A stretch of DNA of 64,000 nucleotides, taken from Shigella phage vB_SsoM_113. A model generated the notes under the pieces. The model searched no databases, had not been told where the DNA came from, and saw only the letters and a program-made list of their open reading frames with translations. The DNA is taken from sequence record LR746311; one strand, written 5' to 3'. Shown in pieces: positions 46,170-53,953 of this stretch. Numbering within the stretch: the stretch's first letter is position 1; every line of letters begins with the position of its first letter. The translations under genes were made by a program, and so were the position numbers.

Positions 46170-46620
46170 GCTAGAGATAAGAAGCAATTTTAAATGGCCA
46201 TCATGCGCATTAAGTAATTTTGCCCAATGGCCTTTCGTTATGGATGGTATTCAATTTGGAGGTCTAGAAGGATTCCTCCAAGGGTGTAAGGTGAAAAATG
46301 TTGAACAACAACGTCGTATATTTGGGTTATCCGGGCTTGCCGCCCAACAGGCTGGAAGGTCTTATGCTAGAGCTCAGGACCGTGGCACGTTGTTCTGGCT
46401 TGGAGTTCCGTTTTCAAGATACTCCCCGGCGTGGAAAGAATTATACACAAATGCATATTTTGAAGCAGCGTTCCAAAACAAGGGCTTTCGCGATGCATTA
46501 CAAGCCTCGAAAGGAAAAGTTTTGAAGCACAGCATGGCTAGTGGTCTAACAAAAGATGATACAATACTAACCGAAGCTGAATTTATTGATGTGTTAAACC
46601 TATTAAGAGACTCTCTATGA
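46156..46620 (+). CDS. NADAR (YbiA/DUF1768)-like protein, candidate ADP-ribose-processing enzyme
   Basis: 154 aa; motif series SNFAQWP..DG..LEGFLQGCK...AAQQAGR...FEAAFQN..FRDAL resembles the recalled YbiA/NADAR pattern (SNFA.WP..DG..E.YFQA.K...AARMGR); the His of the recalled EH motif is replaced. Confidence 0.5.
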   Translation: MKMSELEIRSNFKWPSCALSNFAQWPFVMDGIQFGGLEGFLQGCKVKNVEQQRRIFGLSGLAAQQAGRSYARAQDRGTLFWLGVPFSRYSPAWKELYTNAYFEAAFQNKGFRDALQASKGKVLKHSMASGLTKDDTILTEAEFIDVLNLLRDSL

Positions 46621-47456
46621 AGCCTACTATTTTAACTGATATTGATGGAGTGTGTTTAAGCTGGCAATCAGGTCTTCCTTATTTTGCTCAGAAATATAAT
46701 CTTCCGTTAGAACATATTTTAAAAATGATCCAAGATGAGAAATTTATTTCTCCAGGTAAACTCTTTAATTGTGATGAAGAACTTGGTGTCAAGCTAATTG
46801 AAAAATACAATCGATCAGATTTTATTCGTTACTTGTCTCCATATAAAGATGCCTTGTGCGTAATTAACAAACTAAAAGAAGATTATAATTTTGTAGCTGT
46901 TACAGCGCTGGGTGATTCTATTGACGCTCTGTTGAATCGTCAATTTAATTTGAATGCTCTTTTTCCTGGTGCCTTCTCAGAAGTAATGATGTGTGGTCAT
47001 GATTCTTCAAAAGAAGAGTTGTTCAAAAAGGCAAAAGAGAAATATAACGTAATTTGTTATATTGACGATCTTGCTCACCACTGCGACCACGCGAGTGAAA
47101 TATTAAATGTTCCGGTTTATTGGATGGCTCGAGGAGAGCGTGACAATATTCCAAAAACTGCGCAGCGAGTTTATACATGGAATGATGTAGAAAATAAGTT
47201 TTTTTCGCCGAAGGAAAATAAAGAAAGTTTTGATAGTGAAAAAGCTATAAAAGATTTAATTGAGAAGATGGTTAAAAACGATTCTTTTCCTTGGAACACT
47301 ACCTGGAAAACGCCTGGATTTAATCCTTATAATCATCTATATCATCCATATCAGACACATCCGTTTCAGACATGGAACTACATTAAACCTGGTGGCATAG
47401 AGTATTTGTATAATAGACCTACTAGCGGTGATAATATTTTCCAAGGAGCATTCTAA
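46617..47456 (+). CDS. HAD-superfamily phosphatase/nucleotidase-like protein
   Basis: 279 aa; HAD motif I ILTDIDGV at residues 5-12, Ser/Thr motif VAVTALG, Lys, and YIDDLAHH acidic motif; ATGA overlap with the NADAR-like ORF. Confidence 0.55.
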   Translation: MKPTILTDIDGVCLSWQSGLPYFAQKYNLPLEHILKMIQDEKFISPGKLFNCDEELGVKLIEKYNRSDFIRYLSPYKDALCVINKLKEDYNFVAVTALGDSIDALLNRQFNLNALFPGAFSEVMMCGHDSSKEELFKKAKEKYNVICYIDDLAHHCDHASEILNVPVYWMARGERDNIPKTAQRVYTWNDVENKFFSPKENKESFDSEKAIKDLIEKMVKNDSFPWNTTWKTPGFNPYNHLYHPYQTHPFQTWNYIKPGGIEYLYNRPTSGDNIFQGAF

Positions 47457-47725
47457 TGTTTGTTGTTCACACTATTTATGAAAATGAAGGTAATACTACA
47501 CGTGATTACGGTCACGTAAATCAATTTTTTAGATGTAATCCAGAATTCCGAGCTCAAAAAGACGAACGAATTTTTAAAAAATGTGTAGAGCAAGGTTTCA
47601 TTTACGTTAAGCACTGGATGCAAGGAAATAAAGTTAGAACTACATATCATAGGTCTTTGCCTGAGCTTAATGATGAATTGATTTATAATAGAGCTGTAAA
47701 CCAAACCTTGAAGGATGAGCAATGA
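47456..47725 (+). CDS. hypothetical protein (30.1 position)
   Basis: 89-aa ORF, overlapping stop/start on both sides. Confidence 0.45.
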   Translation: MFVVHTIYENEGNTTRDYGHVNQFFRCNPEFRAQKDERIFKKCVEQGFIYVKHWMQGNKVRTTYHRSLPELNDELIYNRAVNQTLKDEQ

Positions 47726-49182
47726 TTCTTAAAATTCTGAATGAAATAGCATCTATTGGATCAACTAAGCAGAAGCAAGCAATTCTTGAAAAGAATAAAG
47801 ATAATGAATTGCTTAAACGAGTATATCGTCTGACTTATTCTCGTGGGTTACAGTATTATATCAAGAAATGGCCTAAACCTGGTATTGCTACCCAGAGTTT
47901 TGGAATGCTGACTATTACCGATATGCTTGACTTCATTGAATTCACGTTAGCTACTCGGAAATTGACTGGAAATGCTGCAATTGAGGAATTAACTGGATAT
48001 ATCACTGATGGTAAAAAGGATGATGTTGAAGTTTTGCGTCGAGTGATGATGCGAGATCTTGAATGCGGTGCTTCAGTATCTATTGCAAATAAAGTTTGGC
48101 CAGGTTTAATTCCTGAACAACCTCAAATGTTGGCAAGTTCTTATGATGAAAAAGGCATTAGTAAGAATATCAAATTTCCAGCCTTTGCACAGTTAAAAGC
48201 AGATGGAGCTCGGTGTTTTGCTGAAGTCCGAGGCGATGAATTAGATGATGTTCGTCTTTTATCACGAGCTGGTAATGAATATCTAGGATTAGATCTTCTT
48301 AAGGAAGAGTTAATCAAAATGACCGCTGAAGCTCGCCAGATTCATCCAGAAGGCGTGTTAATTGATGGCGAATTGGTATACCATGAGCAAGTTGAAAAAG
48401 AGCCAGAAGGCCTAGATTTTCTTTTTGATGCTCCTGAAATCAGTAAAGCTAAAGAGTTTTCCGAAGTAGCTGAATCACGTACTGCTTCTAATGGAATTGC
48501 CAATAAATCTTTAAAGGGAACTATTTCAGAAAAAGAAGCTCAATGTATGAAGTTTCAGGTCTGGGATTATGTCCCGTTAGTAGAAATATACGGTCTTCCA
48601 GCATTTCGTTTGAAGTATGATGTACGTTTTTCTAAACTAGAACAAATGACATCAGGATATGATAAAGTAATTTTAATTGAAAACCAGATAGTAAATAACC
48701 TAGATGAAGCTAAGGTAATTTATAAAAAGTATATTGACCAAGGTCTTGAAGGTATTATTCTCAAAAATATCGATGGATTATGGGAAAATTCTCGTTCAAA
48801 AAATCTCTATAAATTTAAAGAAGTAATTGATGTTGATTTAAAAATTGTAGGAATTTATCCTCACCGTAAAGACCCTACTAAAGCAGGTGGATTTATTCTT
48901 GAATCAGAGTGTGGAAAAATTAAAGTAAATGCTGGGTCAGGCTTAAAAGATAAAGCCGGTGTAAAATCGCATGAACTTGACCGTACTCGCATTATGGAAA
49001 ACCAAAATTATTATATTGGAAAAATTCTAGAGTGCGAATGCAATGGTTGGTTAAAATCTGATGGCCGCACTGATTACGTTAAATTATTTCTTCCGATTGC
49101 GATTCGTTTACGTGAAGATAAAACTAAAGCTAATACATTCGAGGATGTATTTGGTGATTTTCATGAGGTAACTGGTCTATGA
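47722..49182 (+). CDS. 30: ATP-dependent DNA ligase
   Basis: 486 aa (T4 ligase is 487); conserved position upstream of alt. Confidence 0.9.
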   Translation: MILKILNEIASIGSTKQKQAILEKNKDNELLKRVYRLTYSRGLQYYIKKWPKPGIATQSFGMLTITDMLDFIEFTLATRKLTGNAAIEELTGYITDGKKDDVEVLRRVMMRDLECGASVSIANKVWPGLIPEQPQMLASSYDEKGISKNIKFPAFAQLKADGARCFAEVRGDELDDVRLLSRAGNEYLGLDLLKEELIKMTAEARQIHPEGVLIDGELVYHEQVEKEPEGLDFLFDAPEISKAKEFSEVAESRTASNGIANKSLKGTISEKEAQCMKFQVWDYVPLVEIYGLPAFRLKYDVRFSKLEQMTSGYDKVILIENQIVNNLDEAKVIYKKYIDQGLEGIILKNIDGLWENSRSKNLYKFKEVIDVDLKIVGIYPHRKDPTKAGGFILESECGKIKVNAGSGLKDKAGVKSHELDRTRIMENQNYYIGKILECECNGWLKSDGRTDYVKLFLPIAIRLREDKTKANTFEDVFGDFHEVTGL

Positions 49183-49367
49183 AAGCTTACTTAGAAACAA
49201 TTGTCGTGGCTCAAAAAGAAGGTGGAGATGTTTCTACTTCTGTATCACAAATTATGATTGAATTTATAGATGCATATGCTTATAATAAATTCACAGAAAC
49301 ATTTGATACCTATGAAAAAGGTCCAAAGTTTGAAATATATCGTACTCTCTTACCAATAGATTATTAA
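49179..49367 (+). CDS. hypothetical protein (alt.1 position)
   Basis: 62 aa, ATGA overlap with the ligase stop. Confidence 0.4.
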   Translation: MKAYLETIVVAQKEGGDVSTSVSQIMIEFIDAYAYNKFTETFDTYEKGPKFEIYRTLLPIDY

Positions 49368-49390
49368 AGGCCTTCGGGCCTTTAATTTTA
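49366..49390 (+). terminator. terminator-like hairpin
   Basis: aaaggcc-ttcg-ggccttt followed by a T-rich tract. Confidence 0.45.
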
Positions 49391-49419
49391 TAAATAGAAT
49401 AAACACTAGAGAGGATATG

Positions 49420-51513
49420 ATGGAACTCATTACAGAATTATTTGACGAAGATACTACTCTTCCGATTACAAACTTAAATCCAAAGAAGAAAATACCGCAA
49501 ATTTTTTCAGTTCATGTTGATGACGCAATTGAACAACCAGGTTTTCGTTTATGTACCTATACATCTGGAGGTGATACTAATCGCGATTTAAAAATGGGCG
49601 ATAAAATGATGCATATTGTTCCTTTTACATTAACTGCTAAAGGTTCAATTGCTAAATTAAAAGGTCTCGGTCCAAGCCCAATTAATTACATCAATTCAGT
49701 TTTTACTGTTGCGATGCAGACGATGCGTCAGTATAAAATTGATGCATGTATGCTCCGTATTCTTAAGTCTAAAACTGCTGGTCAAGCTCGTCAAATTCAA
49801 CTTATTGCTGATAGACTTATCCGTAGTCGTTCAGGTGGCAGATACGTCCTTCTTAAGGAACTCTGGGATTATGATAAAAAGTATGCATATATTCTTATAC
49901 ATCGCAAAAATGTATCATTAGAAGACATTCCAGGAGTTCCAGAAATTAGTACCGAGCTCTTTACTAAAGTTGAATCGAAGGTCGGTGATGTTTATATCAA
50001 TAAAGATACTGGAGCTCAAGTAACTAAAAATGAGGCAATTGCTGCATCTATTGCGCAAGAAAATGATAAACGTTCTGACCAAGCGGTAATCGTTAAAGTT
50101 AAAATTTCCCGTAGAGCAATTGCACAAAGTCAGTCATTGGAATCTTCTAGATTTGAAAGTGAATTATTCCAGAAGTATGAATCTACCGCAGCTAATTTCA
50201 ATAAACCTGCTACAGCTCCTTTAATTCCCGAAGCAGAAGAAATGAAGCTTGGAATTAATTCATTAGCTTCTAAAACTAAGGCAGCAAAAATTATTGCTGA
50301 AGGAACTGCAGATGAACTTCATTATGACTATAAATTCTTTTCAAAAAGTGAGGTTAATGAAGTTTCTGAAAAAATTAAAGATGTAATTCTTAATGCGATT
50401 AAAAATGAACCAACTACTTCAATAAAATGTTTAGAGAAATACGCAGCAGCTGTTAATCAATTATTTGAAGAATATAAAGATAACTGGCTTGATAAACATA
50501 ATAAAACTCGTAAAGGACAAACAGATGAAGTCTGGGAAGAAATAACTAAAAATTCCTGGAACGCAGCAAAAACTAAATTCCTCAAACGAATGATTTATAG
50601 CTTTTCCGGAATTGGTGCAGGTCCAATGATTGATATTACTATTGCCCGTGATGGTTCTAAATATACTCCATCACAAAAGCGCGGCATTAGAGAGTATTGT
50701 GGTTCAGGATATACTGACATCAATAATCTTCTTTTGGGTCGTTACAATCCAGAACGATATGATGTAATGAGTGAAAAAGAAATTGAATCTGCTATAAATA
50801 ACTTAGATTCAGCTTTTGAAAACGGTGACCGTATACCAGAAGGCATTACAGTTTATCGTGCTCAAAGCATGACTGCTCCTATATACGAAGCATTAGTTAA
50901 AAATAAAGTATTCTATTTCAGAAATTTTGTATCTACTTCTTTAACTCCTATCATTTTTGGACGTTTTGGAATTACACATGCTGGTATTGGTCTTTTAGAA
51001 CCAGAAGCTCGTAATGAATTGACAGTTGATAAAAATGAAGAAGGAATAACTATTAATCCAAACGAAATAAGAGCATATAAAGAAAATCCTGAATACGTTA
51101 AAGTTCAAATAGGATGGGCAATTGATGGAGCTCATAAAGTTAATGTTGTATATCCAGGAAGTCTCGGAATAGCAACAGAAGCTGAAGTTATTCTACCACG
51201 CGGATTGATGGTCAAAGTTAATAAAATAACTGATGCTTCTAATAATGACGGAACAACATCTAATAATACAAAACTCATTCAAGCTGAAGTTATGACTACG
51301 GAAGAACTCACCGAATCAGTAATTTATGACGGTGATCGTCTAATGGAAACTGGTGAAGTAGTTGCAATGACAGGTGATATTGAAATAGAAGACAGAGTTG
51401 ATTTTGCATCATTTGTTTCATCAAATGTTAAACAAAAAGTAGAATCATCTCTTGGAATTATTGCGTCTTGCATAGATATTGCAAACATGCCTTACAAGTT
51501 CGTTCAAGGATAA
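49420..51513 (+). CDS. alt: Alt-type ADP-ribosyltransferase, paralog 1
   Basis: 697 aa; N-terminus MELITELFDE...; C-terminal R-S-E ART triad: VYRAQS, FVSTSL, TEAEVILPRG. Confidence 0.75.
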   Translation: MELITELFDEDTTLPITNLNPKKKIPQIFSVHVDDAIEQPGFRLCTYTSGGDTNRDLKMGDKMMHIVPFTLTAKGSIAKLKGLGPSPINYINSVFTVAMQTMRQYKIDACMLRILKSKTAGQARQIQLIADRLIRSRSGGRYVLLKELWDYDKKYAYILIHRKNVSLEDIPGVPEISTELFTKVESKVGDVYINKDTGAQVTKNEAIAASIAQENDKRSDQAVIVKVKISRRAIAQSQSLESSRFESELFQKYESTAANFNKPATAPLIPEAEEMKLGINSLASKTKAAKIIAEGTADELHYDYKFFSKSEVNEVSEKIKDVILNAIKNEPTTSIKCLEKYAAAVNQLFEEYKDNWLDKHNKTRKGQTDEVWEEITKNSWNAAKTKFLKRMIYSFSGIGAGPMIDITIARDGSKYTPSQKRGIREYCGSGYTDINNLLLGRYNPERYDVMSEKEIESAINNLDSAFENGDRIPEGITVYRAQSMTAPIYEALVKNKVFYFRNFVSTSLTPIIFGRFGITHAGIGLLEPEARNELTVDKNEEGITINPNEIRAYKENPEYVKVQIGWAIDGAHKVNVVYPGSLGIATEAEVILPRGLMVKVNKITDASNNDGTTSNNTKLIQAEVMTTEELTESVIYDGDRLMETGEVVAMTGDIEIEDRVDFASFVSSNVKQKVESSLGIIASCIDIANMPYKFVQG

Positions 51514-51516
51514 ATC

Positions 51517-53574
51517 ATGGAACTTATTACAGAATTATTTGACGGCGCTTCGGCGCCGGTTGTTAACTTAAATCCTAAGCATAAAATACCTCAAATTTTT
51601 GCTATTCAAGCCGGTGAAGAAAGCGTGCTTCCTGGATTTAGATTTTGTACATACACCTCTGGTGGTGATACAAATAAAAACGTTAAGCCAGGCGATAAAA
51701 TGATGCATATCGTAATGATAGGTGTCAATGAGAAACTATCATTAGTTAAACTTAAAAACTTGGGTGGAAATCCAATTGGTGTCATTAATGCCGTTTTTGA
51801 TACTGCTCTTCAAACAATGAAACAGTATAAAATTGACGCATGCCTATTCCGCGTACTAAAGAGTAAAACAAATGGCGCAGCTCGTCAAATGCAAGTTATT
51901 GCTGACCGTTTAGTACGTACTAAAGGAGCAGGTCGATATGTTCTTTTAAAAGAAATCTGGGATTATGATAAAAAGTATGCATATATTATGGTTTACCGTA
52001 AAAATGCCAATTTAGAAGACATTCCAGGTGTACCTCCTATTTCAACTGAGTTATTCACAAAAGTTGAATCAAAGGTTGGTGATGTTTATGTAGATGTTAA
52101 AACAGGTAATGCTGTTCCTAAAGCCGTTGCTGTGGCTGCTTCTATTGCTTTAGAAAATGATAAGCGCACGGATCAAGCTGTTATTCAGAAAACTAAAATT
52201 AGCCGTCGATTAGCAGCACAAGCTCAATATTCTACTGTCGATGCTTCACTTCAGGGTGATAGCTTCGCTGCCAAGAAATATCAAGAGTTTGAATCTAAAG
52301 TTCCGGTATATAAAGCAGAAGGACCAATGAACTCTGGTGTTATTCAGATTGGTTCCAACTTCAGCAAAGGAGCTATCGGTGGTATGAGAAGTGCTTCTCG
52401 TTTTAAATCTAACGATTATGAACTAGAAAGCTTCCGAAATCATATTGCATTGGCCCATGCACGTTTACGTGATCCGTCTATCAGACTGCAGAGCGATATA
52501 ACATATCAAGGTTCTCAAGAATATTTAAAGAATAAAGAATTTTTTGATTATAAAACCGATAAAATTTTGAGCGATCTCGCTGACATTAATATTTCTAATA
52601 GCTTTGATGTTATTAAGAAAATTGTCAATGATTTAGTTAAAGGTTCTAAAGCCGCACCAGACGAAAAGGTAGCTATTATTCAATTTGTCATGAATAGCAT
52701 TTATAAATTGATTAATGAATCTGCTGCTCAGGCATATGAATACGCAAGCACCGAAGTAACTCCAAAAGGATTAACTCAGTCTGAGTCTGATGTAATTGAA
52801 GATTATTGTGCAGATTCATATGTTGAAATGAACTCGTTCCTCTTGGGTAAACCAGATTCTACCCGTGAAGAATACATGGAACGAGCTATTAAACACATCG
52901 AGACGCTGGATTCTGCATTCGCCAAAGGATCAGTTCTTCCTCCAGGAACTACGCTTTATCGTGGGCAAGAAGTTACTTTTAAAACTTTACGTCATAATAT
53001 TGAAAATAAAATGTTCTATTTTAAGAACTTCGTATCAACATCGCTTAAACCAAATATCTTCGGTGAGCATGGTAAAAACTATATGGCTCTAGATGATTCA
53101 GGTGCAGTATTTTCTGGTGAAGGAGAAGGTTCTGTTGATGCTGAAGATTTAATGCATATGGGTAGTCATTCTGCATATGCTAATGAAGATGCTGAAGCTA
53201 GCGTAGGTATGGTAATTAAAGGGGCTGAGCGAATCAAAGTTATCGTTCCAGGTCATTTATCAGGATTTCCATCAGAAGCTGAAGTTATTCTACCACGTGG
53301 AATTTTGTTAAAGATTAATAAAGTAAGCACGTACATGATGAAAGAAACTGCTTATAACAAGTATCTAATCGAAGGCACAATCGTTCCTCCTTCTGAACAA
53401 TTAGAAGAATCAGTATATGATGGCGATCATCTAATGGAAACTGGTGAAGTTCGTCCAATGGCTAGGTTTAATCAATTCCTTGTAGAAGAATCAAAAGAAG
53501 AGGAAAACGAAGTTTCTCAAATCTTGGCTTCTTTGGTTAACATCAATGGAATGTCTAAAAAGTTCAAGATGTAG
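51517..53574 (+). CDS. Alt-type ADP-ribosyltransferase, paralog 2
   Basis: 685 aa; same N-terminus MELITELFDG and C-terminal ART motifs (LYRGQE, FVSTSL, SEAEVILPRG); divergent central region. Confidence 0.75.
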   Translation: MELITELFDGASAPVVNLNPKHKIPQIFAIQAGEESVLPGFRFCTYTSGGDTNKNVKPGDKMMHIVMIGVNEKLSLVKLKNLGGNPIGVINAVFDTALQTMKQYKIDACLFRVLKSKTNGAARQMQVIADRLVRTKGAGRYVLLKEIWDYDKKYAYIMVYRKNANLEDIPGVPPISTELFTKVESKVGDVYVDVKTGNAVPKAVAVAASIALENDKRTDQAVIQKTKISRRLAAQAQYSTVDASLQGDSFAAKKYQEFESKVPVYKAEGPMNSGVIQIGSNFSKGAIGGMRSASRFKSNDYELESFRNHIALAHARLRDPSIRLQSDITYQGSQEYLKNKEFFDYKTDKILSDLADINISNSFDVIKKIVNDLVKGSKAAPDEKVAIIQFVMNSIYKLINESAAQAYEYASTEVTPKGLTQSESDVIEDYCADSYVEMNSFLLGKPDSTREEYMERAIKHIETLDSAFAKGSVLPPGTTLYRGQEVTFKTLRHNIENKMFYFKNFVSTSLKPNIFGEHGKNYMALDDSGAVFSGEGEGSVDAEDLMHMGSHSAYANEDAEASVGMVIKGAERIKVIVPGHLSGFPSEAEVILPRGILLKINKVSTYMMKETAYNKYLIEGTIVPPSEQLEESVYDGDHLMETGEVRPMARFNQFLVEESKEEENEVSQILASLVNINGMSKKFKM

Positions 53575-53632
53575 TTTACAAGTCCATCGTGTTGTGTTAT
53601 AATAATCTTACTGACATAACATGAGGAACACA
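53574..53632 (+). promoter_or_regulatory. promoter plus 5' leader hairpin covering the RBS (repeat copy 2)
   Basis: gtttac 53574-53579 overlapping the alt-2 stop; tataat 53598-53603; same stem arms as the element at 37783 with a different loop. Confidence 0.45.
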
Positions 53633-53634
53633 AA

Positions 53635-53925
53635 ATGAAATCTTCTTTACGCTTTTTAGGTCAAGAACTTATAGTTGAAGGCGTTATTCCTGCTGATAAT
53701 GCTTTTAATGAAGCAGTTTATGATGAATTTATCAAAATTTTTGGAATAGATAAAAAGTTCGGAATTTTTCCTTCTGAAAATTTTTCAAAGCCAGAGCAGA
53801 CTGAAAGCATTTTCCAAGGTGTAGTAACAGGTAAATTCGAGTCAGAAGCTCCGGTAAAAATTGAAGTTTATATTGAAGACAGTTTAGTTGCTTCAGTTGC
53901 TGCTTTTATTTCATTCCGTAAATAA
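53635..53925 (+). CDS. hypothetical protein (alt.-1 position)
   Basis: 96-aa ORF after the repeated leader element. Confidence 0.5.
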   Translation: MKSSLRFLGQELIVEGVIPADNAFNEAVYDEFIKIFGIDKKFGIFPSENFSKPEQTESIFQGVVTGKFESEAPVKIEVYIEDSLVASVAAFISFRK

Positions 53926-53931
53926 AAATAT

Positions 53932-53949
53932 GGGGACCAAAAGGTCCCC
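53932..53949. terminator. bidirectional terminator between convergent units
   Basis: ggggacc-aaaa-ggtcccc perfect hairpin between the + ORF ending 53925 and - strand gene 54 ending 53954. Confidence 0.55.
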
Positions 53950-53953
53950 ATTG

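Follow-up and report, generated by a model that had tools for sequence, protein, structure and literature searches.

The 64,000-nucleotide (nt) stretch of Shigella phage vB_SsoM_113 analysed here (LR746311; the window, within which all coordinates are given) is a segment of a Tequatrovirus (T4-like) genome that carries two adjacent genes of the Alt ADP-ribosyltransferase (ART) family, designated altA and altB. The locus is the ordinary Tequatrovirus alt region, consisting of gene 30, alt.1, alt, a second alt paralog (alt.-2 or 'Alt2'), alt.-3 and, on the opposite strand, gene 54. Within this ordinary locus, altB most likely encodes a second packaged and injected arginine ART with targets different from those of altA, a reading to which we assign a probability of about 0.7.

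Gene content and occurrence of the tandem pair

The open reading frame (ORF) map places the two genes as follows:

49420-51513, + strand, altA, 697 amino acids (aa)
51517-53574, + strand, altB, 685 aa

Judged from the ORF map and the Pfam matches of their neighbours, altA and altB lie between gene 30/alt.1 and alt.-3/gene 54, which is the position of the Alt family, and the region is syntenic with the alt regions of T4, T2, T6 and ime09. The 6.3-kb segment 47700-54000 displays 97-98% identity to many Tequatrovirus genomes annotating two Alt-like genes, a single match covering at least 80% of it in 392 records. DNA specific to altB (51900-53574) was recovered from 401 phage records at 93-98% identity and at least 80% coverage; all counts given here refer to records, some phages being present as both GenBank and RefSeq accessions.

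The same two genes, in the same order and with the same lengths (697 and 685 aa), occur in T2 (MH751506) and T6 (MH550421), whose Alt shares 98-99% aa identity with altA and whose second gene shares 98% with altB. The layout was also found in RB32, ime09, AR1, Shfl2, the BASEL phages and others, under varying names: the second gene is 'alt.-2' in ime09 and RB32 and a 'hypothetical protein' with a note on alt.-1 and alt.-2 in T2 and T6, the BASEL phage FelixPlatter lists 'Alt' and 'ADP-ribosyltransferase Alt2', and many RefSeq records carry 'Alt-like RNA polymerase ADP-ribosyltransferase (x2)'. The pair in the window shows no difference of substance from those of T2, T6, RB32, ime09 and FelixPlatter and represents another isolate of the same kind.

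The tandem pair is thus already known in sequence and annotation and is the ordinary state of Tequatrovirus. A preliminary description of this DNA had presented it as unusual against the single Alt of T4; that premise of novelty fails because the two-gene layout is ordinary among T-even reference genomes, T4 itself carrying a deletion remnant. As a discovery the pair adds little, since the layout has been deposited and annotated in hundreds of genomes, T2 and T6 included.

Family membership, catalytic residues and predicted fold

Both products matched Pfam PF03496 ADPrib_exo_Tox (altA, 1.5e-37; altB, 3.1e-20) and, end to end, PHROG 802 'Alt-like RNA polymerase ADP-ribosyltransferase' (1e-271 and 8.6e-255, respectively), and full-length similarity places both in the T4 Alt family. 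They share 41% identity over their full length (BLASTP E value 4e-157), far beyond chance. The earlier reading of the two ORFs as tandem full-length Alt paralogs is borne out by the ORF map, this identity and the two profile matches. NCBIfam returned no match for either protein, and the Pfam search returned none for the N-terminal domain of altA or altB; homologs carry a precomputed PF26846 assignment.

The catalytic set comprises R480, S505-T506-S507 and E587-A-E589 in altA and R482, S507-T508-S509 and E587-A-E589 in altB, so that the R-S-E motifs are intact in both, as first described, and the second ORF does not lack them. The arginine, both serines and both glutamates are invariant in a 25-sequence family alignment, and both proteins can be assigned, from sequence and from fold matches, the arginine-type ART domain (R, S-T-S, E-x-E) of the Alt family. 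Alignment with VIP2 pairs LYRG of altB with VYRW and GFPSEAEV with GFASEKEI; the loop preceding E-x-E is VIP2-like, with an aromatic residue, in altB (SGFPSEAE), whereas altA reads LGIATEAE. In T4 Alt the E577A substitution is catalytically dead (PMC11404850), and E577 fits the second glutamate of its E-M-E motif if numbering starts at an upstream ATG that is present in T4 too.

AlphaFold2 models of altA and altB (mean predicted local distance difference test score, pLDDT, of 74 and 72) display a common layout: a short N-terminal helix, an alpha/beta N-domain extending to about residue 225, an all-helical region at ~240-415, the ART domain at ~417-625 and a low-confidence C-terminal tail. The two are the same four-part protein, consisting of a 6-residue N-terminal propeptide, an alpha/beta N-domain, a helical variable region and a C3/VIP2/Vis-like ART domain, followed by a poorly predicted tail. 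Their parts, all on the + strand, are:

altA (697 aa)
49420-49437, propeptide, aa 1-6
49438-50133, N-terminal alpha/beta domain, aa 7-238
50134-50649, helical variable region, aa 239-410
50650-51315, ART domain, aa 411-632
50857-50859, R480
50932-50940, STS, aa 505-507
51178-51186, EAE, aa 587-589
51316-51510, C-terminal propeptide after LTE-632, aa 633-697

altB (685 aa)
51517-51534, propeptide, aa 1-6
51535-52227, N-terminal domain, aa 7-237
52228-52761, helical variable region, aa 238-415
52762-53409, ART domain, aa 416-631
52960-52962, R482
53035-53043, STS, aa 507-509
53275-53283, EAE, aa 587-589
53410-53571, predicted C-terminal propeptide after LEE-631, aa 632-685

The toxin ARTs of the R-S-ExE type (Vis, C3, iota Ia, CDTa, VIP2 and Certhrax) show only 14-26% sequence identity; they have neither the N-domain and helical region of the phage proteins nor the termini removed by protease, and their delivery routes differ. 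Published work presents Alt both as an enzyme and as part of the prohead core (PMC11404850), so altB could be pictured as a structural core constituent that keeps an ART-like fold without catalytic activity. This is highly improbable: R482, S507, S509, E587 and E589 are intact and invariant, and the ART domain of altB is modelled with confidence and superposes on active toxins.

Paralog comparison and age of the duplication

The first nine residues, MELITELFD, are the same in altA and altB, with ITE at residues 4-6, and identity remains at 55-75% by region across aa 1-238 (68% for the N-domain overall). It then falls to 5-20% over aa ~239-410 and recovers to 28-45% in the ART core, within which an insert (altA 525-560) retains only 7%. 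The shared N-terminus with its I-x-E site and the strongly divergent centre, both pointed out beforehand, are therefore confirmed by pairwise alignment.

Synonymous divergence (dS) between the N-domains is 1.23, close to saturation, with a nonsynonymous divergence (dN) of 0.29 and dN/dS of ~0.24; in the helical region dN rises to 0.95, and from the N-domain through the helical region into the first half of the ART domain dS stays at or above ~1.2. The duplication is old, because synonymous divergence is high even in the conserved N-domain. The paralogs have diverged anciently along their whole length under uneven constraint, and the N-domains are alike by constraint and not by recent exchange. 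These dS values led us to reject an alternative, that the tandem copies had recently swapped a domain. The 'swapped middle domain' of the preliminary description consequently does not lie between the paralogs; a mosaic is found instead within the first gene, when its T4-type and T2-type alleles are compared.

T4 carries a remnant of altB

The T4 record calls alt.-1 and alt.-2 'an old duplication of the first part of gene alt'. In our alignment, this T4 DNA matches the first ~345 nt of altB with near-complete base identity; one nucleotide missing from an A-run splits the T4 frame where altB of the window is intact, and T4 has then lost, by a 1,699-bp deletion flanked by CTAAARAGT repeats, altB codons 114-680, rejoining at the last 20 nt of altB. 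The two repeat copies, located in the window by k-mer offset mapping and, for the left copy, also by alignment, are:

51856-51864, + strand, left repeat copy CTAAAGAGT, altB codon 114, start of the T4-type deletion
53555-53563, + strand, right repeat copy CTAAAAAGT, altB codon 680, end of the T4-type deletion

The deletion junction falls within this 9-nt repeat (CTAAAGAGT / CTAAAAAGT). The PHROG families of alt.-1 and alt.-2 match altB at 2e-40 and 3e-38, versus 1e-21 and 2e-19 for altA. T4 alt.-1/alt.-2 is the frameshifted 5' stump of altB. The altB of the window is no such remnant: the gene, elsewhere annotated alt.-2 or 'Alt2', is one uninterrupted 685-codon ORF that contains the two copies of the repeat along with the 1,699 bp between them.

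One T6 annotation records the long form as an 'insertion in alt.-2' in T6/T2. We rejected this reading; the difference is better explained by a deletion in the lineage of T4, because the long form is intact and under purifying selection, the short form is frameshifted and the junction lies at microhomology. The T4 junction was present in 91 phage records, field isolates included, and is therefore a natural minority allele rather than a laboratory artefact. The model phage T4 lacks a gene that is maintained, under strong purifying selection, in about four-fifths of the related phages sequenced.

Alleles of the first gene

altA is the T2/T6-type allele of alt. T4 Alt shares 70% aa identity with it overall (BLASTP, full length) and 41% with altB by the same measure. 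Identity between T4 Alt and altA reaches 99% over the N-terminal 238 aa and 95% over the C-terminal 64 aa; the two also share the ITE-6 and LTE cleavage motifs, the R/STS/ExE set, the upstream hairpin and the late promoter. Their flanks (aa 1-238 and 634-697) display dS values of 0.16-0.23, inside the range of 0.07-0.27 observed here among orthologous alt genes of these phages, whereas aa 239-633 show dS of 1.0-1.5, except for the 525-560 insert (0.59, over 26 aligned codons). DNA of the T2-type middle was found in 323 phage records and that of the T4-type middle in 175. The first gene therefore exists as two anciently diverged alleles set in near-identical flanks, the pattern of a recombinational cassette and a true mosaic replacement.

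altB occurs with either first-gene allele; SH7, for example, combines a T4-type Alt with altB. Counting the two first-gene alleles and altB, the two gene positions of the locus are shared by at least three middle-plus-ART variants of ancient divergence.

Both copies are under purifying selection, which is strong for altB: dN/dS is 0.03-0.09 among altB orthologs and 0.02-0.08 for altA within one allele class. These values bear on whether altB might be redundant with altA, acting on the same targets, such as RNA polymerase alpha, as extra dosage or back-up. A common fold, E-x-E arginine-type motif and architecture would suit redundancy, as would the tolerance of altB loss by T4-type phages. On the other hand, the helical region cannot be aligned between the paralogs (5-20%), the ART insert and the loop before E-x-E differ, and each copy is separately conserved (dN/dS <0.1) across hundreds of genomes, where simple redundancy usually decays. 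Even two alleles of the first gene differ in activity against the Mokosh defence, Mokosh type I being countered by Alt(T4) but not by Alt(Bas37_0033) (preprint, bioRxiv 10.1101/2025.11.20.689424). This report supports the view that Alt variants can differ in function, and we regard redundancy as quite unlikely.

Predicted expression, processing and role of altB

The signals upstream of altA are:

49366-49383, + strand, terminator-like hairpin AAAGGCC-TTCG-GGCCTTT followed by a T-run, read from the sequence
49389-49396, + strand, T4-type late promoter consensus TATAAATA, from pattern search and sequence reading

The hairpin overlaps the alt.1 stop codon (49365-49367) and is absent from the output of the automatic terminator scan; T4 has the same element upstream of alt. 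The late promoter sequence TATAAATA lies 21-24 nt upstream of the altA start codons and is followed by the Shine-Dalgarno sequence GAGAGGA, and the arrangement upstream of T4 alt is identical, with hairpin and T-run abutting the late promoter. Ten copies of TATAAATA were found in the whole window against 9.6 expected, which is chance level, and the argument for a late promoter at 49389 is its position and not the occurrence of the motif. Only 3 nt separate the altA stop codon from altB, which is served by an AAGGA Shine-Dalgarno sequence; no late-promoter consensus of its own was found before altB, where the Shine-Dalgarno sequence is the only signal. As it stands 3 nt behind altA, downstream of TATAAATA and without a late promoter of its own, altB probably shares one late transcript with altA.

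T4 Alt is a NAD:arginine ADP-ribosyltransferase that modifies RNA polymerase alpha, MazF and other host proteins. Each T4 head contains about 40 copies of it, which are ejected along with the DNA (PMC9026906). The protease gp21 cuts it at ITE-6, which takes off the first six residues, and at LTE-619, which takes off the last 63 (PMC5694885). At the homologous positions, altA and altB both have ITE-6, and near the C-terminus altA has LTE-632 and altB LEE-631; by sequence these are the motifs of the Alt family. The glutamate preceding the C-terminal cut (E631 in altB) is invariant in the family alignment, and most of the altB tail beyond 631 is modelled at pLDDT <50 (629-669 and 677-685). Because ITE-6, L-x-E-631 and the N-domain are kept, altB is most likely a prohead-core protein that is trimmed, packaged and injected. 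Its targets are probably unlike those of altA, given an unrelated helical region and differences both in the insert between STS and ExE and in the loop before ExE.

The course of events that we propose is as follows. altB would be transcribed late together with altA from the TATAAATA promoter, and its product would be targeted to and built into the prohead core, trimmed by gp21 at both ends to about residues 7-631, packaged and then injected with the DNA as Alt is. In the host it would act as an arginine-specific (E-x-E) mono-ADP-ribosyltransferase on a target set distinct from that of altA. The earlier suggestion of two co-injected ARTs with different substrates appears reasonable and gains strength from the conservation of the cleavage sites and from the late transcription unit that the two genes apparently share. 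A more specific version, in which Alt2 is a second capsid-packaged, gp21-trimmed and injected arginine ART with its own host targets, possibly with an anti-defence role, and has escaped study because T4 carries the 1.7-kb deletion, stands in our estimate at about even odds.

Several points weigh against this proposal. The divergence in targets is deduced from sequence divergence alone, and the packaging, cleavage, activity and targets of altB are predictions. The transcription model is drawn only from position and T4 precedent: another exact TATAAATA, which may be fortuitous, lies inside altA (50793-50800, + strand), and promoter and terminator scans of the region are at chance level overall. 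The virion proteome of SH7 lists only the first gene's product, in a shallow data set of 13 structural proteins with 3% coverage of that product. Finally, about 90 records lack altB, which is therefore dispensable on at least some hosts. We also considered, from gene length, whether the product detected in SH7 might be altB, and the coordinates show it to be that of the first, T4-type gene.

The SH7 data bear most directly on the possibility that altB is an active but unpackaged ART that works only from new synthesis in the infected cell, like ModA and ModB in T4. This would agree with the SH7 mass spectrometry and with the literature, in which we found no proteomic detection of the second paralog. 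Yet altB retains the first nine residues of Alt, ITE-6, the whole N-domain and the invariant L-x-E, features with no obvious use outside prohead targeting and processing, and it apparently belongs to a late transcription unit. We consider an unpackaged altB unlikely and favour its delivery with the DNA.

We found no functional, experimental or virion-proteomic study of the second paralog in the literature, including under the name 'Alt2'. A HIDEN-SEQ preprint treats only the first gene, bas37_0033, and the Alt experiments in the literature covered here were done on T4, the carrier of the 1.7-kb altB deletion allele. Given that Alt alleles differ against Mokosh in the preprint cited above, the second paralog is an inexpensive and clearly defined candidate for mapping targets and for screens of anti-defence activity. 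If the proposed role holds, infection by most natural T-even phages would bring two different ARTs into the host within the first seconds, and alt would be a polymorphic effector locus whose two positions draw on at least three interchangeable middle-plus-ART variants.

Start codon of altA

Two in-frame ATGs (49417-49422) stand at the start of altA, the alternative start, at 49417, giving a protein of 698 aa; T4 likewise has ATGATG. Deposited records disagree on the start of alt (697 or 698 aa), and the twin ATG may account for offsets in residue numbering between papers, such as E577 versus E576.

Neighbouring genes and Alt copy number in other phages

The ORF map assigns the neighbours of the pair as follows:

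46617-47456, 30.2
47456-47725, 30.1
47722-49182, gene 30, DNA ligase
49179-49367, alt.1
53635-53925, alt.-3
after alt.-3, opposite strand, genes 54 and 48

The alt.1 product (62 aa) shows a full-length match to Pfam PF24647 'Phage_blade' (5.4e-29), and its gene overlaps the ligase stop codon by 4 nt. alt.-3 matches Pfam DUF5498 (2.5e-63); in T4, mutants with a C-terminal extension of alt.-3 escape the CmdTAC defence system (PMC11618068). A near-consensus sigma-70 promoter at 53575-53603 (TTTACA, 17 nt, TATAAT, with an upstream TG; 11 of 12 matches) begins directly 3' of the altB stop codon, upstream of alt.-3, which on account of this sequence probably has its own early promoter. Between the convergent alt.-3 and gene 54, a GC-rich hairpin with a 9-bp stem (53930-53951) has a terminator score on both strands.

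Alt-family genes were detected by tblastn in 1,221 phage records. Searches with altB revealed that other T4-like phages can carry Alt-family genes at two or three separate places in one genome: three in MX01 (NC_031934) and two each in dhabil, JSE (NC_012740) and GEC-3S, all T4-like phages of E. coli, and multiple places also in Aeromonas T4-like phages such as avDM7-IJDJ. Some other groups, for example Klebsiella and Acinetobacter T4-like phages, have one. Variation in Alt copy number is therefore widespread among T4-like phages, and alt duplications, including a full-length one in phage 44RR, had already been described by Nolan et al. 2006 (PMC1524935).

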